Virus record (IMG/VR): IMGVR_UViG_3300026320_000001
Location: 1 to 64,000 of that record
From: a virus
DNA: 64,000 nt
Direction: 5' to 3' (one strand)
Shown here: positions 1,035 to 60,150 of the stretch, piece after piece
How positions within the stretch are numbered: position 1 is the first letter of the stretch
Layout: every line of letters begins with the position of its first letter
The notes under the pieces: model-generated
Database searches by the model: none
What the model saw: the letters and a program-made list of their open reading frames with translations, nothing else
What the model was told of the DNA's origin: nothing
Translations under genes and position numbers: made by a program

Positions 1035-2126
1035 TATATTACGCTCGAATAAATAAACAATGTCGGATGCTAAAAAGATATGGCTTAAAATTGGATTGTC
1101 ATAGTCCACCGAAGCGTAAAAAAATTTTTATCATGAGGTAAAAATGGCAAAATTCAAGAATAAAGAAAAGCAAAAGACAATTCAACGTAAACAGGAACGC
1201 AAGCAAAAAGAGATTAAGCTTAATCCTAAAATGCCAAAAGAATAATTATTTTTATTTTATTGAATAAAATTTATATAGGGGTTTGCAATTATTGAAAGTT
1301 TATTAAAGCAATGGTCGCTCATACTGATTTGAAAAGGATAAACAAAATGATTCAATCAATGCTTTTATCAAATAAAGAATTTAATAGTGATGGTTTTAAT
1401 CATGGTGATTTTCACAGATTTTTACGTCAATATAAGTCAGTTGTTGATTCTGAATTGTTGGATACAACTTCAACCGGTGGAGACTGGTCTGGATTTATTC
1501 AACAAAAATTAAATGGAACATATTATATTATTACATTTTTTCAATATCATGCAAATGGTGGCTGGAATGCTCCCCTAGTTTGTGAAACTGGAAGTATTTT
1601 AGCAAGTGGAAAAGAAAAATTTACTCGTGAAGATGTATACAGTATTTGGAATGAAACGCTAGAATAACATTGTAATTAATGGCGGCTCATGGTATAATAA
1701 AATTATGGAGATAAAATAAAATGACAAGAGAAGATGCATTGTATAAAGCTCGAAAAATTAAAAATCGTTTTGGTGGTTGGACAATTGACTGGTATTATAA
1801 ACTATTGACAAAATATAATTTATGGCCTCAAGAAAATACCGAAACAATTCGTAAAGAAAACATGTATCATCTTATCTAATAAAATGAACCTTTTATAAAG
1901 GAATGGTGAAAATGATTACTACTCAAAAAGAAATACGTGAAAATTTTTGGCAAGAATATCCTGAAGCAGATAGGCGTAAGATTAAGAATTATGCTGGAGA
2001 TGGTCTTATGTATAAAACTGATACTCGTGTTTTATTTGTTGACTATGTAGATTATTTACAAAAGTCCGGTGAAATTTCTGAAGCATTGGCGCAACGTGTA
2101 ACATTATAAAAAGGATAAAAATAATA

Positions 2127-2447
2127 ATGGATAATCTCACTCTCGGACAACAAAAAGATTTTAAGAAAAAATTGCGTGATGCATTTAGTGTATTAAGAAA
2201 ACATGGTTATTTTGCTAGACAAAATTTTTGGTGTTGTCAATCGTGTGCTTGTGCTGATATTCCTGAAGAAGCAGAAAACTATGTTTTTTATCATAATCAA
2301 GATAATCAAAATATTCCTTCAGGTAAAATTCATCTTGCATGGGATGGAGATGGTAATAAAATTACTGCGGCCTTAACATTGGCTGGTCTTGAATGGGAGT
2401 GGGATTATAGCAAAGGTCAAAGAATCAAAGCAATATATGTAAATTAA
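2127..2447 (+). CDS. Cys-rich hypothetical protein (DUF6891-like)
   Basis: ARQNFWCCQSCAC and YVFYHNQD motifs, recalled as typical of this family. Confidence 0.5.
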   Translation: MDNLTLGQQKDFKKKLRDAFSVLRKHGYFARQNFWCCQSCACADIPEEAENYVFYHNQDNQNIPSGKIHLAWDGDGNKITAALTLAGLEWEWDYSKGQRIKAIYVN

Positions 2448-2580
2448 TCTACATGCATTATATAGAATCGCTCACAGAATGATTGTGGACGATTTTATAT
2501 ATTAATGGTTGCTCATGTTGGTTTGAAATTATGTGTTGAAATTTAGTGGTAAATATTGGCGAAATTGCCCATTGTAGGAC

Positions 2581-2609
2581 TTGACTCTTTTGTTATCATG
2601 ATGTATAAT
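2581..2609 (+). promoter_or_regulatory. sigma70-type promoter
   Basis: TTGACT-17bp-TATAAT. Confidence 0.7.
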
Positions 2610-2891
2610 TATTATATCAATGGAGATAAAAATGAATTACTATTTGTTTGACCGTCTTTCTAATCGTCACAAGTGGCAAATTATAGGCTCATGGAATGAT
2701 GTTAAATTTTTAGAGCATTTCAAAAATGTTCAATTAAATATATTTGAAAGATGGGAAAAGAAAAATAAATTTCCCGATTATCAATTAGGAATAATTGAAT
2801 CAGATGAAATAATTAATCATGATAGCACTTTGCCAGTCAATTATAATATGACATATGTTTTATTATTCAAAAACAATTGAGGAAAAATAAA

Positions 2892-3032
2892 ATGTGGATA
2901 ACAAAAGTATTTAAAACAAAAGTGGCAATGGAAAAGTTTATTAATAAGAATGCTGGTAAAATTTAGTGGGTTGAAATTTTTATCAATAATGCTTATGGCA
3001 TTGAATATCGTAAATTAATTCGTGTTTATTAA
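2892..3032 (+). pseudogene. Small ORF with in-frame TAG at 2964-2966 (MWITKVFKTK...KI*WVEIFINNAYGIEYRKLIRVY)
   Basis: GAGG RBS and ATG at 2892; the frame continues 21 sense codons past the TAG to a TAA just before the next RBS. Confidence 0.5.
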
Positions 3033-3636
3033 TAAGGAAAATAATGATTAAAAATTATACGATTATCAATCGCATGGATTCTAATAATTACTTAAATTCA
3101 GTATTGATTAAGGAAAAGTTGTCAGATGGTTTTTATGCTTATTTTGAAATTACTTTGAATACAACTCATGAAGATGGTAAACTCAAAAAGGGTGATGGCT
3201 ATGGCAAGAATTATTTTTATCAAATAAGACGTTTTGAGAATGACCATATTGCAAATTATATCTCTGACCCATTCAAATACATTACAGAACAAATGTTCAA
3301 AGATGCGAAAAAAATCTTGAACAAGAATTTTACATTACAAAAGAAAATTCATAGTGTTGGCGAAAAATTTATTCATTATTATTCTATGTTCAAAATTGTG
3401 GAACATAGCCTAAAATCTTATCATGATGATTTTTACTGGCATGATGTTTTCAATATTGGAATGAAGTTATCCAACAATGAAAAGATTGATTTTATTTGGA
3501 TTGTTCGTGAACATGGCACAAATATTTGTCAATTGAATGACATTGTTTATAATGCCACTATTCAAGCATACCCTAATGCAAAAATATACCATGTTACAGA
3601 AAAGACAATTCGCCCATATAAAAAATAAATTTACTA

Positions 3637-3665
3637 TTGACTTTTATAAATGGTTATGATATAAT
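3637..3665 (+). promoter_or_regulatory. sigma70-type promoter
   Basis: TTGACT-17bp-TATAAT with extended TG. Confidence 0.75.
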
Positions 3666-5283
3666 TGTAATATGAATGGAGATAAAAATATGTCCGAACA
3701 TCATGTAGGTCAGATTGCAGAATATGGTACAGAAGAATATAATTCTAATAAGTCTGCTTATACCATTTTAGAAAAAGCGACTTATGTAAATCCTCATGGC
3801 ATTGAACATCCGGCGGTTTTATATCATCGTTCGGCTGGTTATAAGCCTGCTGGCAGTTGTGCAACATATTGTAAGGAAATTTGGGGTTATAGTATTTTTT
3901 GGGAATCAGATGGTACAAATCATGGCCGCTATAGTGGCAATGAAAATGATGCCCGTGAATGGTGGAATACTATGAGCAAAAAGAATTTGGAGATTATATA
4001 ATGAATAAACGAACATTCAATAAAATTCTTAAAGAAGTTTCAAATAAAAAAACTGGTTTGTTGGATAAAGATAAAATCAAACTATTAGATAATGAGACAA
4101 AAACTTCCTTAGTACATTTTATTGTTCGTAATCGTGCCGCAGTTATTGTAAATTTTATTCCTGAAAATTTTGATACTGCATGGTTACATTCAATGGGATA
4201 TTTATATACTGGCAGTAATAAGCATTTTGATTTTGTTGGAACATCTGAAAATATTCAGAAAATTGGAGTATAATCAATGGCCTCATACAGTGTTTTACTT
4301 ACAGATGGTTTTCGTGCAAATTGTCAAGGCAAAAAAATTTCAAACGCCATGAAAACATTGGCAGAAAAACGTCCCGATTTAATTCCTCTCATGATGCCAA
4401 GTTTTATAACATATATTAATGGTGTTTCTAGTTATGGTTTTCGTCAAAATGAGGAAAGTAGAAAAGCAATTAAGATTATTAGAAAACGTGCTGGCATTAA
4501 TTAATAAAATCGGAATTTTATGAATAGGAAAATAAATGAAAAAACAATATAATTTTATTGTACTTCCGTATTCAGAAAATCTTAATTTTGATTTACAAAA
4601 CAATCCATTTTCTTCTATTGATGGAACACTCGAATTGGCTTGGCAATGGGCAAAAAACCTTATAAAATTTAATCCTGTTTGCACAAGAGTTATATTTCAG
4701 TCTGTGAATGGTAGAAAAATATATTATTTAGAAAATAATGGAGAATAAATAATAACATGAAAATAAATTCTGCAATTGGAATATATACTTATAAGGCAGA
4801 CTATACCGAATCCATTAAAGCAATGGTGGCCGATGGTAAATTTGCAAACTTTGAAGAAATAGAAGATTATATTCGTGAACGTATAATTAAAGCTGTTTTA
4901 AATGATTATGATATTGCTGAAAATATTTTTACAGAAGTCTCATAACTATAAAATGGAGTATAATAACATGCGTGACATTAATCAATGGCCTTACAATGGT
5001 GAAGATGGCATGAGTGCAAATTTTCGTGCTGGTAATAATTTATGGATTGAAACTAATCTTGAATCATATTGGAATCAATTGGAATGTCTACCTCCCATTA
5101 GGCAGAATAATACTGTTTTTATGGTTGGAGAATGCTACACCCATAGAGAATCAGATGGTGCAAGTTGTTATGCCGCATTTATAGAATATGATGGTAGATA
5201 TTTTGGTAAAATTAACGCATTGAAAGATTTTGATTATAATAAGTATATTCAAGAGATAATCAAACAATTTGATTTATAAAAGC

Positions 5284-5312: not shown

Positions 5313-6871
5313 CACTATATCAATGGTCACCATAGGAGATTACATGAAAACAATTTTTTTACCTTATTCGGATGTGATTGAAATTCGTCAAGTAAATAGG
5401 CATGATGATAGGATTGCTGGAGCAAATGAAATTACTAAGATTATTTTTTATTTGTTTGGCATGATAAATATTGAAGAAGTATTTAGACCTATTCTTGCTG
5501 AATTGAACATTGATTCCAAAGTATTTTTTGAAGTATTCTGGAAGCACGTACAAAAAAATTCCATTTATAGTTAATTATTGGCCGCATTTCAATAAATAAA
5601 ATGTCAGTTTCATTAATGGAGTATTATGAAAAGATTTTATATAGAATATACTTTAATTGAACCTGTTCACGCAATGAATGGAGTAACTGTTCTATATAAC
5701 AGAACAAGAAATTATAAAAGGACATTAAAGGCAAAAGATTTTTGGAATGCTCTTTTTGTATTTGGAAAACAAGTTGATAAAAAATACATGAATGGCCGAT
5801 TTACAATAAACAAGGCATGGGAATATCTTGAAGATGGCACGTGGAAACAATTTTCAAATGACGAAATATTCTCTGCTCTTGCGCCATTTTGATATTAATA
5901 AAACTTGTATTTTATAAAGGATAAAATAAAATGCCATATAACATTGGAAAAGACGAATACGAATTCAATATTAAAAAATTAGAAAAACTTCACAGAGATA
6001 TAGTTATTGCTCGTGATGAATATTCATATGGTAATGAATGGAAATTGCTACATAATCTTCAGGGGTTTATTACAAAAGTGGATATTTATGAAAATAAAAA
6101 TCCCATAGATGTTGATATTTTAAATATTTCAATATCTGCTTTAAGTGCCAAAATTCAATATGCTATGACACTAGTAGAAAATGCTCAAAATTCTTTGTTG
6201 GGATTTTTAACAATTAATGGTCGCAGGAAAAAAGAAATAATCTTATTAGAATACAGAACATTTTTATTCAAGCCAGAGACACGCTATTAATCATTGGGCG
6301 AAAAGGATAAATAAAATGGATAATATTGTAAAAATAATTTATGAAGATAAAACAGTTTATAGTATTGGCGAAAGTTTAAAAATTACTTCAATGGATGGGG
6401 GTGTTATAATCTTTGGTGTTTCTCAAAATAGGGGTATTGTTATAGTTCCTGAAGAATTTGAAAATTTACTAAGCGTTCTACAAGAGATATTAATAAAATA
6501 GCCATTTCATAGGAGTCTAAAATTGATTAAAAATATTCATATAAATTTTTATATTGTAAAAGGTAAAGCACAAGAAATTATTTCCTGTGCTGAAGATAGC
6601 GAACAAAATAAAATTTTAGAATTGGCCGAATCGAATATTGCCAGTCTCATTATTCCTACATTGAAAATTGAAAAGAAGGCCGTATACTTTGTAATCTTTG
6701 AAGGTGATTATGTCGAATCTGGTCGCTTGAAGAATCAAACAGAATGCAAGTGTGTTAAGACAGATTATACTCCTGCTACCTTTCGTAAGGCTCATAGAGA
6801 CATGATTAAGGCTGATGCTAAAGCAATGAACAAAATAGATTTAGAAAAAAACTATTCTTAAGGGAGAATTA

Positions 6872-7846
6872 ATGGGAAATATTATTGATTTGACAGGGCA
6901 TAAATATGGAAGATTAACCGTTCTAGAATTAGATTATGTAAATAAAAAAGGAAAAACGTATTGGAGTTGTCTTTGCGAATGTGGAAATCATATTACTATT
7001 CAGTCAGGAAATTTGAGAAATGGAAATACTAAGTCTTGTGGTTGTTATAATAAAGAAAAAGTAAGTGAAAGAAGTAGAATAGATTTAACTGGAAAAATTT
7101 TCGGAAGATTAAAAGTTTTAAAAATAGAACATTTAAACAAAGAACTATATTGGTTGTGTGAATGTTTAAATGATGGAAATTTATTAATTGTTAGGGCGTC
7201 TCAATTAAAAAATGGTAAAACTAAATCCTGTGGATGTTTTCAAAAGGAAATAGTTAGCAAGAGAAGTTTTATAAATTTGATAGATAAAAAATTTGGATTT
7301 TTAACCATCATAGAACTTGCTTATATGGATAAAAATAGGGGAGCATTTTGGAAATGCCAATGTTCAAGAGATGGTAATTATATTATCACGAGTTCCAGTA
7401 GTTTAAAATCGGGAAATACGAAATCATGTGGATGTTTATCGGAAAGTTGGATTGCTTCTGAACTTAAAAAATATTTCAAGAAAAAATATGGAGCAGAAAT
7501 AGAATATAAGATTTTCAAAAATATAAAGACAAACAAATTTTTACCTTTTGATATATTTTTACCGAAAGAAAATATTTATATTGAAATTCATGGACAACAT
7601 CATTACAAAATTCATCGTTGGCATTATCTACAAGCTAAAAAAAATAATACATCCGTTAATCAAGAATTTTATTATCAAAAAATTAAAGATTATATGAAAA
7701 AAATGTTTGCAAAAATAAATGGGATTTACATTGAGATTGATTTAAGAAAAATTATTGTTCCCGAAGATGCAATTATGCAAATAAATAAAATTATTAAAAA
7801 TAAAATCAAAACTAGAATATTTCACCTATTGACTTTTTGGGTGTAA
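6872..7846 (+). CDS. Putative homing endonuclease: three DLTGxxFGRL/CxC...KSCGC repeats plus C-terminal PD-(D/E)XK-like domain
   Basis: Three tandem ~65-aa repeats ending TKSCGC; LPFDIFLP...YIEIHGQHH nuclease motif. Confidence 0.7.
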   Translation: MGNIIDLTGHKYGRLTVLELDYVNKKGKTYWSCLCECGNHITIQSGNLRNGNTKSCGCYNKEKVSERSRIDLTGKIFGRLKVLKIEHLNKELYWLCECLNDGNLLIVRASQLKNGKTKSCGCFQKEIVSKRSFINLIDKKFGFLTIIELAYMDKNRGAFWKCQCSRDGNYIITSSSSLKSGNTKSCGCLSESWIASELKKYFKKKYGAEIEYKIFKNIKTNKFLPFDIFLPKENIYIEIHGQHHYKIHRWHYLQAKKNNTSVNQEFYYQKIKDYMKKMFAKINGIYIEIDLRKIIVPEDAIMQINKIIKNKIKTRIFHLLTFWV

Positions 7847-7857
7847 TTTGGTATAAT
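7829..7857 (+). promoter_or_regulatory. sigma70-type promoter
   Basis: TTGACT-17bp-TATAAT with extended TG. Confidence 0.75.
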
Positions 7858-8586
7858 TAATAAAAACAGTGATTTTATAAAGAGGAGTTTATAATGGGCA
7901 GTAGATTTGGTATGTATTTTGCAAGCGTTTTTGAACAATCAGAAACCGAAGAAAATTTTATTCAAATTATAAAAAACAATGGTTCATTATATATGTATTC
8001 AGATGAACAATTGAAAGACGTTTGGGAAGCATTATGTGTTCTTAATCGTAGTATAATTAATAAAATAATTCGAGAGGTTAAAGATGTCAAATAAACCTCG
8101 TATTATTACAAAATGTGTTGCTGGTACTTATGAAGCACCTAATGAAAAAATAATTGAATTTGATGGTGGATTAATTTCTTTTCGTAAGATGGAAAATGGT
8201 TGTATATCTGTAGATTTATACAGGTTTGATAATAACGTTAAGGTAGATGTAAGTTATGAAAATGGTTTATTTGAACATCACACTGGTGTTTATGGAAGTG
8301 TTACAACTAATCCATTGAAAAAATATAAAATTTAACAACCGGGTGAAACCAGTCTTAGGAGTGTTGCGGTTAGGGACTGGCAGACAATTTGATTGGGTTT
8401 AGGATTGTCAATTAATGAGAGAAAAATTATGAAAAAGAAAAATGGACTAATACATAAATATAAATCATCTAATATTTGGGATATAACTTCTAAGTGTGGT
8501 ATTCCTGCATGGAAAAATGGAAATAGATATTGGAAAAATACAACCTGTAAGGAATGTTTAAAATATAAAAAATTAGGAAAATAAAT

Positions 8587-9270: not shown

Positions 9271-10179
9271 ATATGATTAATTATTTTACAACCACAAATA
9301 TTTGACTATCTCTTGAATCATATTATAATAAGGGTTTGACATCAGAAAAAGCCAAAGAAATTATTCAATCAATGGCAGACCCTTATAGCGCAGGAAGCAA
9401 ATTGAGATGTGAAGCAATGGGCTTGAATGGAAATTGGATTGTTAGTACGTCTGCAAAACGCAAAGATGATATTGAATATGTTGTTCTTGCAATCCAATAT
9501 AATTTAAATATAGAATTAGAAAATAATAAAGGAAAAATGAAATGAAACTTTGGCAGGAAATAAAGAATATGTTGGAACAGTTTGTTATTCGTCTTGCGTT
9601 TTTAATTTTATGGTCTAGTTTTTTAATTGTTTTATTTTATATTTTTCTCTTTTTATATATGTATTGGAGATAAAAAATGATAACTATTATATTAATTATT
9701 GGCGGATTTTTAATTTTATGCTTGTTGATTCATTCTTGGTCTAAGATGCCAATAGAGAATGATACATTGGCTGATGATGATTTAAATAGTAGAAATAAAA
9801 TTCATAATGGAGAATGGTAAAACTATGCAATTATCAAATGATATTATAAAAAAAATACAAAATAACATATGGAAAACTGATTCTATTGATTATTGGGTTG
9901 GCAATATGAATGCTATTGATAATTTGGAAACCAATATTATTGAACAATCAACCGGAAAGAATCATAAAATCAATTCAGAAACAATTCAAAAGGGTTATGA
10001 TATTATCGCAATTCAAGCCACAAATGTTCCTGATTTTATTTTACAACTTTTAGAGACAGAACAATTTGATGAAGAACAATTGGTTGATGCTATTATTCAA
10101 GTTGGCTTATTTGGAGAATTGAAATATCAATAAATAAAATGCCTCTTTTATCAAGAGGCTTTTTAGTTTAAATTGGGGC

Positions 10180-10207: not shown

Positions 10208-10731
10208 CATCTTATATGAAAAAACAATTCTATCTATATAATGACTTTACGGCGATGGAAACATATTGGTATTGTTTTCATGTAATAAAAAATAATTTTC
10301 ATAAATTTATTGATTGGGAATGGGATTACTATTCTGGTCTATATGAAAATAGCGAACCTCACGGAATTTCCAATTTCTTTTGGGTGAAAGCAATGAATAA
10401 TTTTAAAAAGGAAAATAAATGAAAATAAAAGAATTATTAAAACTCAAAAAATTTCAAGATAATGAAAATTTTTTAATAAGTCTTTGGTATGATTTAAGAT
10501 ATGGCATAAATATAGATAGCCAAAAATATCATAATATCGAAAATTTCTATAAAAAAGTAAATAATTCTAAAATTAATGTTCACGATTTAAAAAATAGAAT
10601 ATCTAGCAGATTGATTCAATGTGATTGGTTTATTGAAGACATGATTAAAAATAATGAAAACGTAGAACAAGAATTGAATAAAAAATTAAAATATATTTAT
10701 CTTTTAGAATTAATTAATAATGGAGAATTGA

Positions 10732-11505: not shown

Positions 11506-12323
11506 AAATATGATAAAGAAAATAAAATTATCATTTAAACGTCATCCAAAAGAAACAGGATTAAGAGGAATTGGTCGCCCTTATTCTATTGTTGATATTA
11601 AAATCAATAAAAAAATTTGTGGTCATATTTTTCCTCCAACATGGCAAGATGAAAATCATGTTTGGAAAATTATGATTTCTGTTATTAAAAATGATATTAT
11701 GGAAGATGGAAATAAAAATTGTTCATGGAAATGGTTCACCTTATCTTTTAGAGGCAATGATGAAAATGAATGTCGTGAACATATAAAACAAGAAATTCAA
11801 AAAATAGAAAGTAAATATAATATATATTATATAGAAGAAGAGGAATAAATGAAAATAAATTTTAAATATGTTGTTGAAAAATTTATGTTATATTTATTGA
11901 TGGTGGTTGGAAGTTCATTAGAAATGTTCTTAATTAATTATTTCTTTTTAACAAGACCAGAATATCCTTTGTTTTTTAGTTTATGTTTAGGGGTATTAAA
12001 TTCAACCTTAATAAGTGCAATATCCCTTCCGGGAATAAGTCAAATGATTGATTCAATGAATAAATTTAAAAAATAAAAATTAATAAAATTGTTGTTTTAT
12101 GAATGGAGTTATTCATGTGTAAGCATAGAAATATATCAATAACAGAATTCGGGACAGCGTGGACAAATCATGCTTTACAAAATGGTACATGGTCGCATGT
12201 TAGTGATATTGGAGCATATATAGGTCAAATTGATATTCATTGTTATGATTGTGGTATTGAAAAAACATATTATTATAAAAATCGTCCGAAATGGTTGATT
12301 AAATTATTAGAAGAAATGAACAC

Positions 12324-12352: not shown

Positions 12353-13806
12353 ATAAATATTCAGGAGAAAAATATGGTTCTTTCTACAATATAAAAAAGA
12401 AAGGGATTATCCTTCAAAACCTTTTGAGGTCAAACAATTTTTTGATTTTGAAAAAATGAAAGAATATTCTGCTAATCAAGCTCATCTTTATAAAAATTCA
12501 AAAGACCCTTATTATTCAGAATATATTTCCACTTATTGTAAATCTGAAATTTAAAAATAGGAGAAAAAAAATGAAAATTCAAATTGTAAATTCTACTAAT
12601 ACAAATTATATTGAAATTGGAACTACAGATGGATATTATGCAAAACCCGTTCCTCGTGTTGGAGAAAGAATAAATTTAGGTTATCTTCCTGTGCCACAAG
12701 TGGATTCTGTTGTATATGATTATGAAAATAAAATTGTTTATGTTCATATTGATTCCCCATTTTTAAAAGAATAATAAAATGACTGAAGAAAACCCACAAC
12801 CACAAATTATTAATAAAATTAACGTTTCATTATGGAAACCTTTATGGATTGCTGGATATATGTTTACGGTATCTTATCTTCCCATTGACCCATCATTTCA
12901 CATCCTTGTTTGGTGGAAACAAATAGTTTATATTTTTATAGAAATTATTTTATGGCCCGCGATTCTTGGTGGGCATTTGTCTGGAAAATGGTAATTGATA
13001 ATGGATAATAAAATGAAACATAGAAGGAATATTTTATGAATAAAAATTGGTCTAAAAAAATTCCACAAGAAATAGGATTATATTTTTTCATTGGCGACCC
13101 ATTTGTTTTTCATGAACATATTGAACGTGGAGATATATTAGAAAGTAATTTATATGTTTGTCGTGTTCGTAAAACCTCAAATGGTTTTTCATATATTTTC
13201 GATGGTAATTTTGGAGAAAATAAAATTGGGTTATGGAAAAAAATTGATTTAGAAAGCTTTGATATTCCTGATGGTGTAAATTGGAGAATTTAATGGATAA
13301 AACATATCGAATTGAATTTTCAACTAGGCAATTAATTGGCATTACATTATATGAATTGATTTGTCAAGGTTGGATGCCAGATAAAGATTATATTGTTTCA
13401 AAAGGAAATATGTTGCTCGGTGCTTATCCTGAAGTCGTTTCTGTAGTTGAACATCTATTCGGAGATATGCCAAAGCCTATTGGTCAATATATGAAATATT
13501 ATGAAGAGGCTTATTAATAAAATACTTCTTTTATAGAGGTTTTATGTTTGAAAAAAGTGAATTTAAACTTGGAGAATATAGATATTATGTTGATTGCAGA
13601 ATTGGTTGTTGTGCTATAATTGATACAAAATTACCAATGACCCAAAATGGAAGACTATTTCCAGAAAATAAAAATGTTGTAAAATATTGGGAAGGTTTAT
13701 GGGATGATAATAAAGAAATATGGTATCTTCCTGTTTCGATTGAAAATGAAGCTATGGAATTATGTAAAAAAATGAACACAGAATTCAAAAAAACAGGAGA
13801 ACAATA

Positions 13807-46539: not shown

Positions 46540-46542
46540 AAT

Positions 46543-46859: not shown

Positions 46860-46863
46860 CTAT

Positions 46864-46940: not shown

Positions 46941-46944
46941 CTCT

Positions 46945-47016
46945 ATTCCTATAACTCAATAGTAGAGTGTCCGTTTTACATGCGGAATGTTGGGGGTGCA
47001 AGTCCCTCTAGGAATA
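46945..47016 (+). tRNA. tRNA-Val(TAC)
   Basis: ATTCCTA/TAGGAAT, TCCGT-TTTACAT-GCGGA. Confidence 0.85.
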
Positions 47017-48067
47017 CTAAAATTTAAGGAGAATAAAAATGAATGAAAATGATATAGAACACATTATTAATCAAATGAAATATATTCCTATTAGAAATTT
47101 TTATCATGCAGATAGATATGATACAGATAATGAATATGTTATTCATCTTTGGACTGAAATAGGTCAAAAAAATTTTGACATTAGAATTAAAAAAGAAAAA
47201 ATTAAATGTCCATATTGTGACGATTTTTATTATGAGGGTGGTTGGGCAAATCATTTATTAATGAAACATCATCAACATGCTGGATAAATTATAAAATGAG
47301 ACAAGTTAAACTTTTATATTTCAAATCATATGGTAAATATTATTCTGAAGGTTCGTATGCTACTCAAAAAGAATATGATTTTGATGTTTATACCGAAGTA
47401 GAAAATATGTTTTTAATTGGTAGTTATCCGGGACTATATAACACTGGAAAACCTCATGAATTTGATTGTGTTATTTTCCCTGAAAATGGTGTTCCCGGAA
47501 TTCTTTATGCAAAAGAAATACAAAATTTATTTAAGATGATTAATGGCTAAATTTGATTTAAGACCGATAATGGAATTTCAAGTAAAAGTTGTTTTGACCG
47601 AAGAAGAAGCTAGGGCGTTGCAATATATTTGTAAATATGGTGCAGATACTTTAATCAAAGGCTTGGATACTGTCATGACCACAAAAGAAATTAGCAAGGG
47701 AATCAGAAGTCTTGTTCGTGATACACAAGATTCTATAAATAAACAAATTAGTAAAATTGATGAAGCTAGAAAAGTAGTTGAAGAATAATTGATGAAATTT
47801 ATGTTTTATGGAAATAATATAATTATGTTCAAACAAAAATGTCCAATATGTGATTCAAAATTAGAATATGATATTGATAATTTAGATTTTTATCTAATGG
47901 AAGAGCATTATAATTGCCCCAATAAAGATTATTCTTATTCATATGAATATGGAATGACAAACATAACAATAGGAAATAAAGAATTTAATTATACTTATTT
48001 GGATAGCAATGTAAAAAAAGCTTTAATTTTAAAAGAAATCAAATTAGAGACTGAAAGATTGAAGTCC

Positions 48068-48096
48068 TTGACAAGATTAGAATAATATGGTATAAT
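48068..48096 (+). promoter_or_regulatory. sigma70-type promoter
   Basis: TTGACA-17bp-TATAAT with extended TG. Confidence 0.82.
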
Positions 48097-48458
48097 TATA
48101 TTAAATTAGAAAGGAATTATTTATGAAATCATATCATATTGTTTTATTGTCTGCTTTGGCAACTTTGTGTGCTTTATTTTCTTTTGTTAATTCTGTTCGA
48201 GATATGGAAATTGATAATAATGCTTTCATTCTCGAAACAAATAACTATGACTTAATTATTGCTCATAATGATAATCATGTTGAATTTAATTTGAATTATT
48301 TTTATGGTAATAAAGCATATCAAATAGAAAAAATTTTTATTTTTTAGTTATTTATTGACTGTTTTTGGTGCATAGTCAAATTTATATCGTAATGATATAA
48401 GGGACGCTTGGCGACCTACATAGAAAAGCATAGTAACCATATTTATTAAAAATTAAAT

Positions 48459-48530
48459 GCTGTTTTGGTCTATTGGCTAAGACAATTCTTTCTCAAAGAA
48501 TTATGATGGGTTCGATTCCCATAAACAGCA
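48459..48530 (+). tRNA. tRNA-Glu(CTC)
   Basis: GCTGTTT/AAACAGC, ATTCT-TTCTCAA-AGAAT, TTCGATT. Confidence 0.87.
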
Positions 48531-48539
48531 CAAATATAA

Positions 48540-48752
48540 AAGACACGCACAGTAATCAAACCCAATTCAACCGTTAATTGAAAAATAAGTGTCTTGAAAA
48601 ATAATTTATATATGTACAGATAGACTCTCACAGCAAATAAAATCTTTGTCCAAAAGAAAAAATGGAGTCTTGGCTAATCGTCTAACAATCATAAGACGCT
48701 ATACAGCAATTAAAATAATCAACTTTCAAACAGATGAAATAAATTGCGTCTT
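48540..48752 (+). repeat. Three tandem AGAC..ACAG(C/T)AA..GTCTTG hairpin units in the leader of the DUF2828 gene
   Basis: Units 48540-48595, 48622-48670 and 48693-48752 with covarying closing stems. Confidence 0.75.
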
Positions 48753-48776
48753 GAGAATTTTCAGAGGAGAAATAAA

Positions 48777-50249
48777 ATGAATTTAAAAAATGCTTTATCA
48801 AATGAATCAAATTGGACTCAAACAGAAAATGATGCTGATGCATTAAAATCAACTCAAAATAGTTTAGTTGATTTATTTGGTGTAATTGGTGCATTGCGTA
48901 CTCGTACTGGAGATGTAGAAAATCTTTTTATTAAGGCTTTTTATGAAAATAAATTGCTTGCAACAAAGATGTCTTTTTATGCTCGTAATGTTCGTGGTGG
49001 ACTTGGTGAACGTAGTGTTTCAAAAATTATTTGGAAATATTTAGCAAATAATTATTCGGATATTATGATTAAAAATATTAATATCATTCCTCTATTTGGG
49101 CGTTGGGATGATTTATATGAGTTTGTTGGTACTCCTGTGGAAAAATATATGTGGGAGTTGATTAGAAATCAATTGAAAGAAGACTTGGAAAATTTTACTT
49201 CGGGAAATTCAATTTCTTTGTTGGCAAAATGGATGAAAAGTATTAATGCTTCTTCAACTGAAACAAATCGTCTTGGAAAATTGACAGCAAAAAATTTAGG
49301 ATATTCAGAACAAGAATATCGTAAAATGTTAAAAACTTTGCGTGACCATATTAATATTGTTGAAAGTAAGATGTCAAATAATCAATGGTCAGAAATTGAC
49401 TATCGTTCTGTTCCTTCTAAGGCTATGATGAATTATCGTAAATCTTTTTCAAAACATGATTTGGAACGTTTTGGAAAATTTATTGAAAAAGTTGAAACAG
49501 GTGAAGAAAAAATTAATTCTTCAACTTTATATCCTTATGACATTTTTGAAAAAATGGGATTAGCAGAAAAATATGGTGGAAGAAGTCAAAGCTTTTATTT
49601 CACAAGTCCAGATAAAGTTTTAGAAGCACAATGGAAAGCATTGCCAAATTATTTTGTTGATGGTGATGTTTTGGTTATGGCTGATACATCTGGTTCAATG
49701 CAAGGTAGACCAATTGCAATTTCTCTTGGATTGGCTGTTTATTGTGCAGAACATAATAGTGGACAATTTAAAGATTCATTCATTACATTTTCAAGTCGTC
49801 CAAGTTTTGTCAAACTTGTTGGAAATACTTTGGCAGAAAAAATTCGTAATGTTCCAGCTATTGTAGAAAATACAAATATTGAATCTGCTTTTAATTTAGT
49901 TCTTAATGCGGCAAAAGAAAATAAGGTTTCATCTGAAGATATGCCAAAAGCGATTATCATTATATCAGATATGGAATTTGATAGATGTTCTGGTTATCGT
50001 ATGACATTTTATGATGCTATGAAATTGAAATTTGAAAATGCCGGACATAAAATTCCTGATATTTTATTTTGGAATGTAAATAGTCGCCAAAATGTATTTC
50101 ATGCATTTTCAGAATATAAGGGTGTTCAATTGGCAAGTGGTTCAAGTCCATCGGTTTTTTCAAGCATTATTAAAAATTTGGGCATGAATCCATATGAAGC
50201 AATGTTGAATGTTTTGAACGATGAAGTCTATAATGTGGTTGTAATTTGA
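48777..50249 (+). CDS. DUF2828 family TROVE-like/vWA protein (Ro60-related fold)
   Basis: TENDA, RNVRGGLGER, GRWDDL, LAKW, VPSKAM; vWA MIDAS DTSGS...T...SDMEFD; GAGGAG RBS before ATG 48777. Confidence 0.85.
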   Translation: MNLKNALSNESNWTQTENDADALKSTQNSLVDLFGVIGALRTRTGDVENLFIKAFYENKLLATKMSFYARNVRGGLGERSVSKIIWKYLANNYSDIMIKNINIIPLFGRWDDLYEFVGTPVEKYMWELIRNQLKEDLENFTSGNSISLLAKWMKSINASSTETNRLGKLTAKNLGYSEQEYRKMLKTLRDHINIVESKMSNNQWSEIDYRSVPSKAMMNYRKSFSKHDLERFGKFIEKVETGEEKINSSTLYPYDIFEKMGLAEKYGGRSQSFYFTSPDKVLEAQWKALPNYFVDGDVLVMADTSGSMQGRPIAISLGLAVYCAEHNSGQFKDSFITFSSRPSFVKLVGNTLAEKIRNVPAIVENTNIESAFNLVLNAAKENKVSSEDMPKAIIIISDMEFDRCSGYRMTFYDAMKLKFENAGHKIPDILFWNVNSRQNVFHAFSEYKGVQLASGSSPSVFSSIIKNLGMNPYEAMLNVLNDEVYNVVVI

Positions 50250-50252
50250 CCC

Positions 50253-50281
50253 TTGACAAACTCAAAATATTGTGGTAAAAT
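50253..50281 (+). promoter_or_regulatory. sigma70-type promoter
   Basis: TTGACA-17bp-TAAAAT with extended TG. Confidence 0.72.
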
Positions 50282-50467
50282 TGTTTTATAAGCTAGAGAC
50301 AGAAACAAGGTTAAATAACTGGCAATCAAAAAATCTCTCGCGGTTGGATGTCTCAAAAACATCCTACAGACTGTTTTCAAAATTCATAGCTACAGACCCC
50401 ATTGGGTAGGCTCAATGGCTAAACCAGAAAAGCGTAGAATGGCGACATAAAATTATAAGGATAAGAC

Positions 50468-50878
50468 ATGAGTTCTAATGAATATATGAATACCTATATG
50501 AAAAATAGGTATCAAAAAAGAAAATTATTTGCTCTTGAATATCTAGGCGGCAAATGTTCTAAATGTAATTCGGTAGAAAATTTACAATTTGACCACATTA
50601 ATAGAGATGAAAAGAATTTTACTTTGGCAGATGGAATGTTGTGGTCTGAAAAAAAATTTTTAGAAGAATTAAATAAATGTCAATTATTATGCGTGATTTG
50701 TCATCAAAAGAAAACTTTAATTGATTTAAATCAAAGTGATGGTAAAAATACTCATGGAACATTGACATCTTATAAATATTGTAAATGTGAATTATGTAAA
50801 AAAGCTAAATCTGATTATATGAAAGAATATAGAAAAACATATAAAAGAAAAAGCCGAAGAAAAAATATGGAATTGTAG
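50468..50878 (+). CDS. Small HNH endonuclease
   Basis: LGGKCSKC...LQFDHI...KCQLLCVICH; HGT...CKCELC tail. Confidence 0.82.
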   Translation: MSSNEYMNTYMKNRYQKRKLFALEYLGGKCSKCNSVENLQFDHINRDEKNFTLADGMLWSEKKFLEELNKCQLLCVICHQKKTLIDLNQSDGKNTHGTLTSYKYCKCELCKKAKSDYMKEYRKTYKRKSRRKNMEL

Positions 50879-50951
50879 TCAAGAGGTTAACGACACCAGA
50901 CTTTTAATCTGGCGCAGGAATGCTTCGTGAGTTCGAATCTCACCGATTCCA
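50869..50951 (+). tRNA. tRNA-Lys(TTT) with long variable arm
   Basis: GGAATTG/CGATTCC, CCAGA-CTTTTAA-TCTGG, 14-nt V region, TTCGAAT. Confidence 0.88.
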
Positions 50952-50992
50952 CTTGTAAGAGAAATTATAAAAATAAAAAGGAGAATTATAAT

Positions 50993-51499
50993 TTGAAGAT
51001 TTTGAAGAACTTTGTTTTAGGTGTTGTGTTGTTATTTTCTGTGATTGGCTATAATGTATATGCCGCTCCATTATTTCAACCTTCATTAGTTTTAGCTCAT
51101 CATGATATTGGAAATGGTTCTTGTCAAGAACAATATGTGAATGAAAATGCTGTTGGAAATGGTGAATGGTTTATTGGTGCTTGTCCCGATGTAACTCCAG
51201 TACCAACCGATACATCAACCGTTGTGCCAACCGATACAGATACTCCAGTCGTGACAGATACTCCAGTCGTGACAGATACTCCAGTCGTGACAGATACTCC
51301 AGTCGTGACAGATACTCCAGTCGTGACAGATACTCCAGTCGTGACAGAAATTGCAACTTTTATTGCAGACCATTCACCTCGTAAATATAAGTGTTGGGCG
51401 GCAAAATGGTTTGGATGGGGAAATGGCCCTCTTCCTGTTGATTGCAGATGGCCTGATAATATGCCACAAAGTCCAATTCATGATGGATGGAATGATTAA
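50993..51499 (+). CDS. Secreted protein with (TDTPVV)6 linker
   Basis: AGGAG RBS, TTG start, signal peptide ending VYA, Pro/Thr repeats between two small Cys-pair domains. Confidence 0.7.
   Translation: MKILKNFVLGVVLLFSVIGYNVYAAPLFQPSLVLAHHDIGNGSCQEQYVNENAVGNGEWFIGACPDVTPVPTDTSTVVPTDTDTPVVTDTPVVTDTPVVTDTPVVTDTPVVTDTPVVTEIATFIADHSPRKYKCWAAKWFGWGNGPLPVDCRWPDNMPQSPIHDGWND
51236..51348 (+). repeat. Perfect 18-bp tandem repeat x6 (ACAGATACTCCAGTCGTG)
   Basis: Directly visible; encodes TDTPVV. Confidence 0.95.
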
Positions 51500-51538
51500 A
51501 TAAAAAAAATACCTCTCGATGTACAGGTTAATCGAAAT

Positions 51539-51611
51539 GGGCGTGTAGTTTAACTGGGAAAACAGTTGGTTTGCAACCATCAGAGCGAGGATTCGACTTC
51601 CTCCATGTCCA
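51539..51611 (+). tRNA. tRNA-Ala(TGC)
   Basis: GGGCGTG/CATGTCC with G3:U70; TTTGCAA loop. Confidence 0.88.
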
Positions 51612-51742
51612 CTAATAGTCATAACTGGTTGTTTTCCAGATAAAACATTATGACGAAGCATATGTTTTTGGTTGAGATAGAGATATTTCAATACCATATG
51701 TAGGATAATAACAAAAAGACTGATAGGAGAGACTATCATTAT

Positions 51743-51810
51743 AGTGGCGTACTGTGGATGAAATGAAATCTCCAAAATTTCTAGAGAGGGTTCGACTCCT
51801 TCCGCTACTG
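51743..51810 (+). tRNA. tRNA-Trp(CCA) with reduced D arm
   Basis: AGTGGCG/CGCTACT, GAAAT-CTCCAAA-ATTTC, GAGGG-TTCGACT-CCTTC. Confidence 0.7.
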
Positions 51811-51910
51811 CTAATATACAAAAATAACATAGTTGAATTTTTAGGTATCACTTCATTTCGACAAAGATTTATGTATATAATAAAAGATATTCTTGATATG
51901 AATATCTTAT

Positions 51911-51996
51911 GTGTTGGCGGCAAAGATGGTGGGTTGCGGCGGACTGTAAATCCGTTTACCGTAAGGTACTTGATGGTTCGAGTCCATCTCAACACA
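51911..51996 (+). tRNA. tRNA-Tyr(GTA)
   Basis: GTGTTGG/TCAACAC, GCGGA-CTGTAAA-TCCGT, long V arm. Confidence 0.9.
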
Positions 51997-52003
51997 CAAA
52001 ATT

Positions 52004-52120
52004 TACTATTGACCGAGTGAATAGGTGCAATAAGTCTGGTATCATTCAATGGATTTATATTCTAAATGCGAATGATGATATTGTTGAATCGTGGACATGG
52101 GTTAAATTCCCATATAGTAT
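52004..52120 (+). ncRNA. tRNA-like element with ~45-nt insertion in place of the anticodon loop
   Basis: TACTAT/ATAGTA stem, ACC..GGT D-like arm, CAATA/TATTG stem, ATGGG-TTAAATT-CCCAT T-like arm. Confidence 0.45.
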
Positions 52121-52129
52121 TTTTTATAT

Positions 52130-52201
52130 AGGCAAGTAGCTCAGTGGTAGAGCGTCCGTCTGATACGCGGAGGGTCAAAAGTTCAATTCTTTTTTTGCCT
52201 A
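52130..52201 (+). tRNA. tRNA-Ile(GAT)
   Basis: AGGCAAG/TTTGCCT, TAGCTCAGTGGTAGAGC D arm, CTGATAC loop. Confidence 0.9.
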
Positions 52202-52239
52202 CAAATTATAAATAAAATATTTGTTTTATTTATTTTTAT

Positions 52240-52316
52240 GGTTTATTAGCTCAATCGGATAGAGCAATACATTGTCAATGTATAGGTTGCGGATTCGAGT
52301 TCCGCATAGACCGCCA
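52240..52316 (+). tRNA. tRNA-Asp(GTC), CCA encoded
   Basis: GGTTTAT/ATAGACC-G-CCA, ATACA-TTGTCAA-TGTAT. Confidence 0.9.
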
Positions 52317-52468
52317 ATATATCTGTTCAGACTCTAGAGTAGTAGAAATCTTTTGAAGGTGATGGGCGTGTGGTTAGGGATTGCTGGACACGGATTGATT
52401 TTGAACTTAGCTACTGGACATGATTCATGGAACATAGAGACTAACATGAATCAAAATAATTTTCATAT

Positions 52469-52551
52469 GTTGAATGTGGCAGACTGGTAATGCGCCTGAC
52501 TGTGAATCAGGGTGTGAAAACACGATGAGGATTCGATTTCCTCCATTCAAC
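52469..52551 (+). tRNA. tRNA-His(GTG) with encoded G-1 and long variable arm
   Basis: G-TTGAATG/CATTCAA-C, CCTGA-CTGTGAA-TCAGG, GTGT-GAAA-ACAC V arm. Confidence 0.87.
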
Positions 52552-52570
52552 CAAATAGGAGTAAAATATT

Positions 52571-53065
52571 TTGGAAAGATTTTGGTCAAAAGTAGATATT
52601 AAAAATAAAAATGATTGTTGGAATTGGATTGGTGCAATTGATACAAATGGTTATGGTGCTTTCAAATATATGGGAAAGAAAATTAATTCTCATAGATTTG
52701 CATGGTTTTTAGAAAATGATTATTTTTCAGAAATAAATATTTGTCATATTTGTGATAATAGATTATGTTGCAATCCAAATCATTTATTTGAAGGAACTGG
52801 AAAAGATAATATGCAAGATGCAAAAAATAAAAATAGATTAGCAACAAGTAAAAATAAAAAACATGGATTTTTTATTCATCCTGAAAAAGTTGCAAGAGGA
52901 GAAAATTCTGGAAAACATATCCTAACTAATGAAAATGTTATAAAAATAAAATTTTTATTAAAAAATACAAACTATAAACACAAAGAAATTGGTAAAATAT
53001 TTGGTGTTGCAAGAAGTACAATAAGTTGTATTGCAATCAATAGGAATTGGAAATCCATTAAATAA
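52571..53065 (+). CDS. HNH homing endonuclease with C-terminal HTH
   Basis: RFWSKV..CWNWIG..GYG..HR..CHICDNRLCCNPNHL..GT..DNMQD; KEIGKIFGVARSTI. Confidence 0.88.
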   Translation: MERFWSKVDIKNKNDCWNWIGAIDTNGYGAFKYMGKKINSHRFAWFLENDYFSEINICHICDNRLCCNPNHLFEGTGKDNMQDAKNKNRLATSKNKKHGFFIHPEKVARGENSGKHILTNENVIKIKFLLKNTNYKHKEIGKIFGVARSTISCIAINRNWKSIK

Positions 53066-53074
53066 TTTAATTAT

Positions 53075-53148
53075 GCGTTGGTAGCTCAATTGGATGGAGC
53101 AAAGAGTTTCTACCTCTTAGGTTGCGGGTTCAAATCCTGCCCAACGCA
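53075..53148 (+). tRNA. tRNA-Arg(TCT)
   Basis: GCGTTGG/CCAACGC, AAGAG-TTTCTAC-CTCTT. Confidence 0.9.
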
Positions 53149-53225
53149 CATTCGGACGGATTAAGAGCTAGACTTACAATTCTAGTAAAATTCCAGATGT
53201 ATATCCGAGTCTGGTAAAATAAAAT

Positions 53226-53297
53226 CAGGAATTGGTGTAGCGGTTGCATGGCTATTTTGGAAATAGGCGGTGGAAGGTTCAACTCCTTCATTCTTGA
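53226..53297 (+). tRNA. tRNA-Pro(TGG)
   Basis: CAGGAAT/ATTCTTG, CTAT-TTTGGAA-ATAG. Confidence 0.85.
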
Positions 53298-53310
53298 CTG
53301 TAATAAATAT

Positions 53311-53383
53311 AACCTCTTCGTATAATGGTTTATTATGTGTGGCTTTGAACCACAAGATAGTTGTTCGATTCAATTAGAGGTTG
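53311..53383 (+). tRNA. tRNA-Gln(TTG)
   Basis: AACCTCT/AGAGGTT, TGTGG-CTTTGAA-CCACA. Confidence 0.87.
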
Positions 53384-53417
53384 CTATTAATAAAAATTCA
53401 CATGGAGATTAAATAAA

Positions 53418-55655: not shown

Positions 55656-56087
55656 ATGTGGATTAAAGACCAAACTATTAGGGTAATTGTAACAAGTGCA
55701 GTTGATAAAGGCAAATATGGAGAATTGCGTTTTGTAGATTCTCGAAAAGTAAAAGCAACCGGACTTTATGTAAAATCATATTTTTCTTTTTGGACAGTTG
55801 CAGGAACAGCTTATCAAACTTTTCCAACTTTAGTAAGAGCAATTGAAAATTCTGGAACATTTGAAGGTTCAGATAGAAAAAAGGGTGTTCAAATTATTAT
55901 TAAGGCATTTTCAATCGGTCAAGAAAAATATACTGACAAAGAAGGAAATGAAATATTTTCAAAACAACCTCGTTTCACTGTTTGGGATTGGGATTTTGTA
56001 GAATCTTCTAATAAAGATATGGATACTCCTTCAACTGTTGAAACACCTTTCGACAAAGAACCAGAAATTGAATGGCCTGAAGAATAA
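55656..56087 (+). CDS. Single-stranded DNA-binding protein-like
   Basis: Beta-rich body, acidic C-terminal tail, position between Sak4-like gene and primase. Confidence 0.55.
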   Translation: MWIKDQTIRVIVTSAVDKGKYGELRFVDSRKVKATGLYVKSYFSFWTVAGTAYQTFPTLVRAIENSGTFEGSDRKKGVQIIIKAFSIGQEKYTDKEGNEIFSKQPRFTVWDWDFVESSNKDMDTPSTVETPFDKEPEIEWPEE

Positions 56088-56108
56088 AATATACATTTTA
56101 TTAATAAA

Positions 56109-58114: not shown

Positions 58115-58920
58115 TGTCTGATTATGATTTTATTATTGATAATATGAAATTTAGTTACTCCAACATAAGCACATTTGAAACATGTGCTTATGCTTGGAAA
58201 TTAACGTATATTGATACGTTAAAAAGAGAGCCAAATTTTTTTGCTGAATTTGGAACTTTATGTCATGATATTCTGGAAAAATATTTTAAGGGTGAATTAG
58301 ATTTATTTAATTTGCCGAATTATTATGAAAAACATTTTTATGAAGTTGTTCAATCAATTTCTCTTTCCGGAACAATGACTCAAAATTATTATGATGCTGG
58401 CTATGATTTTTTTACTAATATTGATATAAATCCTGATGATTTTGAAATATTGGAATCAGAATTAAAAACAAGTTCGATTTGGAATGGAATAGAACTTGTT
58501 GTTAAACCAGATATTGTTTTGAAAGAAAAATCAACCGGCAAAATAATTCTTATGGATTATAAAACATCCATTATCAAGAAAAATAAAAATGGGTCAATAG
58601 CAAAATCTGATATTGATAAACTAAATGGATATAAAAAACAATTATTTTTATATGCTTTCTTTTTATCTCAAAATCAAAAAACTAAAATAGAAGAAATTCG
58701 ACTATGGTTTATTCGCAATAATACATTTGAGATATTTCAATATACAGAAAAAGAAGCAATTGAAACTTTAAATTGGTTTATGAAAATTGTGGCTAAAATA
58801 AAAGAAGAAGAAAAATTTATTGCCAATATAAGCAATCCATTTTTTTGCAATAATTTATGTGGAGTTCGTATGTCCTGTGAATTCAGGATACAAAATCCAG
58901 AAAAAGCATCAGAATCTTAG
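58114..58920 (+). CDS. PD-(D/E)XK exonuclease, Cas4/RecB-like
   Basis: SYS..C, GTLCH, PD, MDYKT, QLFLYA, C-terminal C..C...C. Confidence 0.82.
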   Translation: MSDYDFIIDNMKFSYSNISTFETCAYAWKLTYIDTLKREPNFFAEFGTLCHDILEKYFKGELDLFNLPNYYEKHFYEVVQSISLSGTMTQNYYDAGYDFFTNIDINPDDFEILESELKTSSIWNGIELVVKPDIVLKEKSTGKIILMDYKTSIIKKNKNGSIAKSDIDKLNGYKKQLFLYAFFLSQNQKTKIEEIRLWFIRNNTFEIFQYTEKEAIETLNWFMKIVAKIKEEEKFIANISNPFFCNNLCGVRMSCEFRIQNPEKASES

Positions 58921-58937
58921 GATTTTGGTGCTTTTTT
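58896..58937 (+). terminator. Intrinsic terminator
   Basis: AAAAAGCATCAGAATC / GATTTTGGTGCTTTTTT. Confidence 0.65.
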
Positions 58938-58941
58938 GTTA

Positions 58942-58970
58942 TTGACAAATTGAGTTAAATGTGGTATTAT
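58942..58970 (+). promoter_or_regulatory. sigma70-type promoter
   Basis: TTGACA-17bp-TATTAT with extended TG. Confidence 0.72.
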
Positions 58971-58980
58971 TATCTTATAT

Positions 58981-59150
58981 GAGCGTCATGGAGTTTGAGA
59001 TACTCCATATGCAAAGATTTTCGTGATGACATAGAGTCTCCCGGTAGGGCATCAAGTCTTGATGAATCGGCGGGTAAGACTATGCACTCATCAATGCAAA
59101 TAACCTCTCAAAATGACAATGAGAGCATAGATGGAATTCCTGTGACGCTT
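58981..59150 (+). ncRNA. Candidate multi-branched ncRNA or 5' leader (~170 nt)
   Basis: GAGCGTCA pairs with TGACGCTT; GC-richer than background; internal helices. Confidence 0.6.
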
Positions 59151-60150
59151 GTTTACCATATTTATATTTGGAGAATAAAATGAATAAAACTGTTCAAAAA
59201 ATTCTTGCCCTTTCTCATGTTGAAGCCGTTGATAAAGAAGAAGAAGGATATTTTGTTTATTTTAAAAATGGCTATTGTTGGCAAGGCGACCCTCATGGTA
59301 GTATTCATTTCGTTATGGAAGAAACAGCGACAATAGCATTAAGAGAAGCCAAACGTTTTCGTATTTGTACTAAAGATTGTTGTCCACCAGAAACAGCAGA
59401 GGAGAAATGAAAATGAATCTCAACGTTGGAGATAAGGTTGAACTATTGAAAACAATGCTTGGTAATGATTCTGGCACAGTTGGAATTGTTTTTTATAAAT
59501 ATGATGGTGGGGGTGTTCAAATTATTTTTCCCAATGGACAATATGATGGATTTAGTAAAAATGAACAATATAATTATTTAGAATTTATAGAACATGTTTA
59601 TAAATATGAAAATTATCTATTTGAAAATGTAGTTCAAGTATCAATAGATTTTGAAAAAGGATATTGGAGATTTGATAAGCCATGAAAACAATTAAAGAAA
59701 TTATAGAATTAACAAAACAATATAAAAAAATATTTCAAGATAAATTTGAAAAAGAAAATTTTGATTTATTTAAAGAAATTGAAGAACAAATTATCAACGA
59801 AGCAAAACAAGGTAGCGGTCATTTATTGATTTATAAAAGATATTTTGATTCGTATGATAATTTGAGTATTTATGATTTAGAAACATATTATAAAAATCAA
59901 GGATATTCAACACGTATTACTGATGATACTTTTCAGATATATTGGTTTGAATAAAACAATGATTTCATAAAGGAAAATAAATGACATATTTAATTGATGA
60001 CCTTGTAAAAACTAACAAACAAATAGATGGAAAGTGGGTGATTGCACGCCCATTGCTATCATATGATTTATTAAATCGAATAGTTGATTGCTGGCTTGTA
60101 TTAATTGGAAAAGCCGATGCAGTAATTTATATTAGTGGAAAGAAAAATAA

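Follow-up and report, generated by a model that had tools for sequence, protein, structure and literature searches.

Palindromic sites with distinct 6-bp spacers at gene junctions of a phage related to SPbeta: candidate addressed crossover sites for gene exchange

The window analyzed here is the first 64 kb (positions 1 to 64,000) of viral record IMGVR_UViG_3300026320_000001, a complete, circular phage genome of 147,566 bp (28.5% GC) whose terminase is closest to those of SPbeta-like phages (35 to 40%). The palindrome ATRAAA-N6-TTTYAT recurs along this DNA, and an initial annotation had proposed its copies as sites for a Xer-like tyrosine recombinase of 282 amino acids, here designated P0001, encoded on the plus strand at 27434 to 28282. 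The window contains 29 exact copies, with about 1 expected. All 22 starts given in that annotation are exact matches, and the count was too low by seven, at 10285, 12813, 16431, 25261, 33790, 47792, and 60380. The accompanying estimate of about one chance match per 64 kb agrees with Markov simulations of the window (orders 1, 3, and 5), which gave 1.0 to 1.6 copies and a maximum of 5 in 300 runs. When spacer lengths were counted against Markov controls, k = 6 alone formed a peak: other lengths within 0 to 15 bp gave 0 to 3 matches each in the window, and in the whole 147.6-kb genome, k = 6 yields 43 exact copies and no other k more than 5.

The symmetry of the arms, noticed earlier, covers about 26 bp. 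When the sites are aligned in the direction of transcription, their consensus is the 26-bp dyad ATTR-ATRAAA-TN5-TTTYAT-N-AAT, outside which there is no information. The site thus consists of two inverted arms of about 10 bp around a spacer fixed at 6 bp, which is the layout of a tyrosine-recombinase core site; the same 10-6-10 layout is found in Xer/dif cores (PMC6449649). As already stated in the annotation, the spacers are all different, and this holds throughout the genome. The spacers also show polarity when oriented by transcription: the first base is T in 28 of the 43 sites, and T is rare at the last base.

Forty of the 43 sites lie in the plus-strand arm of the genome, which holds small genes, tRNA genes, and genes for replication; the other 3 are in the structural arm. 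In the window, 18-bp site cores occupy gene junctions at 1879 to 1896, 4504 to 4521, 5596 to 5613, 5898 to 5915, 6493 to 6510, 12083 to 12100, 13517 to 13534, 23405 to 23422, 28600 to 28617, 31297 to 31314, 37230 to 37247, 47792 to 47809, and 59951 to 59968. Other cores lie 3' of a stop codon (10134 to 10151), across an overlapping stop and start (16431 to 16448), on a stop codon and the 5' end of the following gene (17454 to 17471), upstream of a DUF932 gene (26252 to 26269), from a stop to the following ATG (41113 to 41130 and 44313 to 44330), at 44076 to 44093, on an ATG 3' of a tRNA cluster (45411 to 45428), immediately 5' of tRNA-Lys(CTT) (46070 to 46087), between tRNA-Ile and tRNA-Asp (52212 to 52229), and before the primase-helicase gene (56084 to 56101). 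The core at 10285 to 10302 is either within a short open reading frame (10216 to 10422) or intergenic. Exact matches also fall within a 71-aa gene (12813 to 12830), a DNA methyltransferase gene (25261 to 25278), a DUF4379 gene (33790 to 33807), and the tRNA-His guanylyltransferase gene (60380 to 60397). Among the four near-matches recorded earlier, those at 13020 to 13037, 45909 to 45926, and 61578 to 61595 are indeed one-mismatch sites with 6-bp spacers, all at gene junctions, whereas the one placed at 7861 is an exact copy with a 7-bp spacer (7860 to 7878), a variant of uncertain status directly after an HNH homing-endonuclease gene (6872 to 7878).

The placement of the sites at gene junctions was largely as first described, with 36 of the 43 outside gene interiors though such DNA makes up 16% of the genome. 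The 124 plus-strand junction windows contain 26 copies at k = 6 and 0 to 1 at other values of k; since k = 6 alone is enriched there, the composition of stop codons and ribosome-binding sites fails to account for the sites. Most sites are inside operons, between co-oriented genes, and copies also occur before tRNA genes and within genes. No promoter signal was found upstream of the sites, and there is no -35 information. Adjacent junction sites in the window bound up to 13 genes and often 1 to 7: the pair at 5596 and 5898 encloses one 88-aa gene, the pair at 44076 and 44313 one 65-aa gene, and the pair at 26252 and 28600 a block of DUF932, recombinase P0001, and one open reading frame. At 10134 to 10165 and 26252 to 26282, the spacer can also pair with the DNA immediately downstream of the right arm. 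At 10134 the result is a hairpin that resembles a terminator and has a T run, the sole such overlap among the sites, and some sites may double as terminators.

Spacers are not only distinct but also kept apart from near neighbors. By column shuffling of the 46 sites of the phage genome, with pairs counted within one mismatch in direct or inverted orientation, we found 4 close pairs where 21 were expected, and none of 5,000 shuffles gave so low a count; three of the four pairs include sites that lie in, or overlap, coding sequence. When seven unrelated genomes are pooled, there are 43 close pairs versus 89 expected, and self-complementary spacers are absent (0 versus 5.7 expected; P = 0.003). 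No depletion was observed at two-mismatch pairs or in flanking hexamers. Exact duplicates alone showed no significant depletion in single genomes (P = 0.08 to 0.9), and the one-mismatch test is the informative one. Such a pattern would be expected if similar spacers recombine to the detriment of the genome; no other functional evidence comes from this phage itself.

The behavior of the sites over time was examined in seven Spbetavirus genomes, which are not independent of each other. Their 252 site copies use 61 spacers, 48 of which are shared, and the shared spacers follow an identical circular order in 21 of 21 genome pairs. A shared spacer often has an unrelated left flank, right flank, or both, and in 21 slots there are at least two unrelated alleles on both sides. 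The flank alleles are reassorted in reciprocal combinations, with all four combinations present in 2 slots and three in many. Sequence identity between unrelated alleles reaches background level no more than about 10 bp from the arms. Single genes can be framed in this manner, as are mtbP (methyltransferase) and yoqD (antirepressor) of SPbeta, each between two sites. Because the same spacers recur in colinear order beside replaced flanks, the spacer behaves as the address of a slot. Breakpoints in alignments of these relatives confirm in part the expectation that gene replacement ends at the sites: 18% lie within 40 bp of a site center, where 2.3% would be expected, and these are most frequent at the arm edges, whereas about four-fifths lie elsewhere. 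Breakpoints are carried by 79% of site-bearing junctions and by 40% of others.

Crossovers of this kind can be recognized among published laboratory recombinants. Supplementary Table 1 of Dragos et al. (10.1101/2020.05.06.055103) numbers 17 SPbeta x phi3Ts junctions, 15 of which lie within 0.4 to 20 kb of homology and two of which lack long homology. We calibrated the offset between B. subtilis and SPbeta coordinates on six other junctions of that table (2,286,447-9). Junction 7, with 30 bp of homology, coincides in each parent with the site whose spacer is TGCATA (SPbeta 69423 and phi3Ts 62422), where the flanks are unrelated, and junction N1, classed as nonhomologous, has its SPbeta end at 116414, where the TATTCC site begins. 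The only two junctions in the table without long homology therefore both fall on matched-spacer sites, and crossovers at matched sites occurred in the laboratory, a result that bears on the sites and not on the enzyme. The motif is not mentioned in the available part of the text of that study (10.1101/2020.05.06.055103). Five sequenced SPbeta/phi3T hybrids cross inside identical blocks of 1.4 to 18 kb and are uninformative on the sites. Taken together, replacement of flanks, breakpoints, orthogonality, and the published junctions support the proposal of the initial annotation that the palindromes are recombination joints bounding gene modules.

The recombinase at 27434 to 28282 was described as the lone one, and this does not hold for the genome as a whole. 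A Pfam search of the genome revealed a second tyrosine recombinase, P0157, outside the window on the minus strand (genome positions 99382 to 100386), next to the tape-measure gene; a search with PF00589 found no third recombinase-fold protein in the phage genome. P0157 belongs to the YomM family and is the orthologue of SPbeta YomM (31.5% identity over 99% of its length; E value, 2e-38). Its structure model has the tyrosine-recombinase fold and resembles XerA, XerH, and Cre; the nearest solved relatives of YomM are XerA and XerH. Both enzymes retain the catalytic set R-K-H-R-H-Y, which in P0157 comprises R167, K212, H284, R287, H311, and Y320. P0157 has at least 646 close homologues, and P0001 only a handful in 5.8 billion proteins. 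In the YomM proteins of SPbeta (L165), Goe14, Geobacillus phage E3 (L573), and a Staphylococcus SPbeta-like phage (L574), H-x-x-K replaces H-x-x-R, and that of E3 additionally has Gln for the last catalytic His. At SPbeta 39885 (L164) and in Spbetavirus orthologues, a site with the spacer GAGGGA lies near yomM and separates alternative neighbors. No relevant main-text match on yomM function was found in the literature searched.

The motif is shared widely. SPbeta, phi3T, SPR, Goe12 to Goe14, and BUCT083 have 34 to 38 copies, compared with 1 to 3 of the reversed pattern, and enrichment extends to Tsamsa, Geobacillus phage E3, the Staphylococcus SPbeta-like phage, and Clostridioides difficile phage LIBA6276, so that the motif is constant over phages of Bacillus, Geobacillus, Staphylococcus, and Clostridioides hosts. 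It is absent from 13 terminase relatives without YomM (G024 to G034, TR-TP2, and PMBT24; several are complete), and it is present, in some cases in a looser version, in most phages that carry YomM. As judged from these genomes, the link of the motif to YomM is good but imperfect. Spacers common to the present phage and to G001, G002, and G003 fall at non-orthologous genes; therefore, addresses are not conserved at that distance. In L012, consecutive sites at 14918 and 15735 have different spacers and an identical 30-bp right flank, which suggests a duplicated leader or the recent birth of a slot.

We propose that the palindromes are addressed crossover sites for exchange of gene blocks between co-infecting phages, the account we judge fairly probable. 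The two inverted arms are predicted to bind protein, and the 6-bp center would serve as the address of the slot. With all addresses kept different within a genome, self-deletion and inversion would be avoided. Related phages retain these addresses in a common order. In a cell shared by two of them, one crossover at matched sites would therefore combine the left portion of one genome with the right portion of its partner, and two would replace the 1 to 13 intervening genes, even by unrelated ones, as a natural recombinase-mediated cassette exchange. A requirement for spacer identity, as would be imposed by the 6-bp overlap of a tyrosine-recombinase core, has strong indirect support in the conservation of addresses, the orthogonality, and the published junctions, all of which are comparisons of sequence. 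It is rather probable that a tyrosine recombinase catalyzes crossover at the sites and, if one does, there is good reason to favor the YomM-type enzyme of the phage (genome positions 99382 to 100386) over P0001. Whether SPbeta-like phages possess, on this basis, a dedicated multiplexed system for swapping alleles, with one YomM and 20 to 50 ordered, orthogonal addresses for homology-free exchange of genes, which would generate mosaic genomes with joints at gene boundaries, is to us an evenly balanced question.

Several observations weigh against this proposal. At the sites themselves, junction N1 maps in the same table to phi3Ts 107382, 14 bp off the TATTCC copy of that phage, the swap of the 's' module between phi3T and phi3Ts ends away from sites, and the sites explain only about one-fifth of the Spbetavirus breakpoints. 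Orthogonality is significant in G000 and G003 and not in Tsamsa, G002, or LIBA6276 taken singly, and exchange at the phage's own sites is read from its relatives. As for the enzyme, YomM of the SPbeta type has Lys for the second catalytic Arg; YomM is present without a clear motif peak in phage 949, G017, G018, and LC76P1; and G022 (a 59% fragment) has 48 motif copies with no YomM found. A search for alternative dyads in 949, G017, G018, LC76P1 (half genome), TR-TP2, and PMBT24 (part) gave no k = 6 peak. Co-occurrence of motif and YomM is also confounded by ancestry, and a matched stretch of 18 to 30 bp could be used by annealing-type recombination too.

The last point leads to the best-surviving alternative, possible though in our view doubtful, in which the arms bind a noncatalytic phage or host protein (an operator-binding regulator, a nucleoid or replication factor, or a recombinase-fold repressor such as MrpR/SroF) and swaps at the sites arise by microhomology annealing on the last 18 to 30 bp shared. 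It has a precedent in the same phage group, where MrpR/SroF, a dead tyrosine recombinase, binds a repeated element (PMC10516654), and another in the shuffling of PeSL cassettes (PMC2839356). The position of sites just upstream of ribosome-binding sites, the Arg-to-Lys change in YomM, and the YomM phages without sites would fit it as well, and an identity of 18 to 30 bp would likewise favor matched spacers. An operator, however, leaves unexplained the conservation of spacers between unrelated flanks, the scarcity of spacer pairs with one mismatch, whether direct or inverted, that ends abruptly at two mismatches, and the complete lack of palindromic spacers, and most sites lie within operons with no upstream promoter signal. 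The element bound by MrpR differs too, with about ten peaks, a 15-bp motif, and binding as a monomer. Moreover, 18 bp is short for homology-driven recombination.

That P0001 acts within the genome to insert, excise, or shuffle cassettes in the manner of integrons, as first suggested, is very unlikely. The enzyme is intact, and contigs with its closest orthologues are enriched in the motif; yet it has few close homologues, and no orthologue was found in the motif-rich SPbeta, Goe14, MT835469, G019, G022, or G023, metagenomic phages among them, so P0001 is not required for the motif. The expected co-occurrence of motif and recombinase thus failed for P0001 and was recovered, imperfectly, for the YomM type. 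Furthermore, the gene for P0001 is itself in a site-bounded block (26252 to 28600), and orthogonal spacers would block excision. Since site order is colinear and the spacers appear to be selected for mutual incompatibility, slot-for-slot exchange between genomes is indicated rather than integron-like shuffling, and P0001 is more likely to be carried along for a different function, e.g., dimer resolution. Equally little can be said for a host enzyme, either a single-subunit Xer (of the XerS/XerH type) or XerC/XerD, acting on the sites as on pdif sites of Acinetobacter. XerS/XerH-type sites have GAAAA-N6-TTTTC cores with a similar 6-bp layout, and the relationship of YomM to XerA and XerH and the pdif precedent also speak for such an enzyme; nevertheless, the motif is constant over four host genera and absent from related phages that lack YomM. 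Finally, a weak A/U mRNA hairpin (an alternative raised in the initial annotation), a terminator, or an extended -10 promoter at the ribosome-binding sites is largely refuted and highly improbable, in spite of the position between stop codon and ribosome-binding site and the frequent TAAAAT formed by the left arm and first spacer base, as covariation is lacking between the two arm positions that vary (11 A-C mismatches, 7 G-T, and zero G-C), the 6-nt loop is invariant in length, no -35 information is present, and spacer conservation, orthogonality, and copies before tRNA genes and inside genes are left unexplained.

Comparison with known systems helps to place the proposed exchange, which would resemble pdif modules and engineered cassette exchange in its working but falls outside the pdif, integron, and PeSL families. 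In engineered recombinase-mediated cassette exchange with heterospecific lox or FRT sites, the arms are the same, the spacers differ, and only matching spacers exchange; pairs with one mismatch may cross-react, and pairs with two mostly do not. The depletion pattern of the phage spacers suggests the same cut between one and two mismatches, but the phage system would be natural rather than engineered and has 35 to 50 addresses per genome rather than two sites. Integrons (IntI and attC) likewise place small genes of unknown function between sites of a tyrosine recombinase. Unlike in integrons, there is no attC structure and no single attI with an adjacent integrase (the candidate enzyme is far from the array), the order is conserved, and modules of 1 to 13 genes include core replication genes. 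Repeated intergenic elements at which exchange occurs are also known as the boundary sequences of lambdoid phages. The PeSL cassettes of T4-type phages are long repeats of a sigma70 promoter and a stem-loop terminator that recombine within a genome and give mini-circles (PMC2839356). As with PeSL, the sites described here are repeated intergenic elements where related phages exchange nonessential genes; in contrast to PeSL, they are 18 to 26 bp long, contain no promoter or terminator in the repeat (10134 alone overlaps a hairpin), and appear to be selected against mutual match.

The pdif sites that bound dif modules of Acinetobacter plasmids are 28 bp long with asymmetric 11-bp XerC and XerD arms (PMC6449649). 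They share with the phage sites a large number, inverted arms, a variable 6-bp center, accessory genes in between, and tyrosine-recombinase geometry. They differ in that the XerC and XerD arms of pdif are unlike each other and host enzymes are used, whereas the phage arms are symmetric (ATTRATRAAA) and the candidate enzyme is phage encoded, and in that pdif modules move to new contexts, whereas phage addresses are colinear in all 21 Spbetavirus pairs and form a fixed orthogonal series. In SPbeta, the element SPBRE, a 15-bp motif at about ten promoter sites, is bound by MrpR (YopR, SroF), a monomeric dead repressor (PMC10516654; 10.1101/2025.11.27.690993). Like SPBRE, the palindrome is a repeated element of an SPbeta-like genome for which binding by a protein of the tyrosine-recombinase fold is predicted, but it has about 35 copies in SPbeta, a dyad, and a free 6-bp center (a comparison by copy number and length rather than by sequence). 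The literature searched holds no description of the motif.

The window has other features as well. Twenty-one tRNA genes lie at 45064 to 53384, and together with two RNA ligases (17898 to 18995 and 31575 to 32669), an adjacent AAA_33/kinase gene, and the tRNA-His guanylyltransferase (60151 to 60873), they make up a large tRNA supply and repair kit. The tRNA region also contains a DUF2828/DUF7788/VWA gene (48744 to 50249), and at 62361 to 63557 there is a protein with WGR and PARP catalytic domains, unusual for a phage. No close relatives of the phage were found in scans of viral contigs with P0001 and P0157, and a scan of metagenomes with an RNA ligase gave only relatives of about 50%. The members of its cluster are re-assemblies of the same strain (99.9 to 100% identical) with few indels, none at sites. 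The differences seen in same-strain contigs of another assembly, namely a 102-bp in-frame deletion in DUF932 (L304; window 26538 to 26639), a 129-bp deletion (L307; window 9684 to 9812), and a small replacement in an AAA gene (L305; window 22084 to 22101), may be assembly artifacts.

Why the breakpoints of phage mosaics fall at gene boundaries is a long-standing question, and the usual answer is random illegitimate recombination followed by selection. Our results contribute the test of spacer orthogonality and place two odd recombinants from the literature on sites, by which both are explained. Were the exchange system both dedicated and multiplexed, for which we see an even chance, it would represent a new kind. 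Dedicated addressed joints, single-gene slots included, seem to be a feature of a large phage lineage to which the textbook B. subtilis phage SPbeta belongs, and the core gene yomM gains a testable role. If this is true, the lineage would provide dozens of naturally orthogonal sites together with their recombinase.

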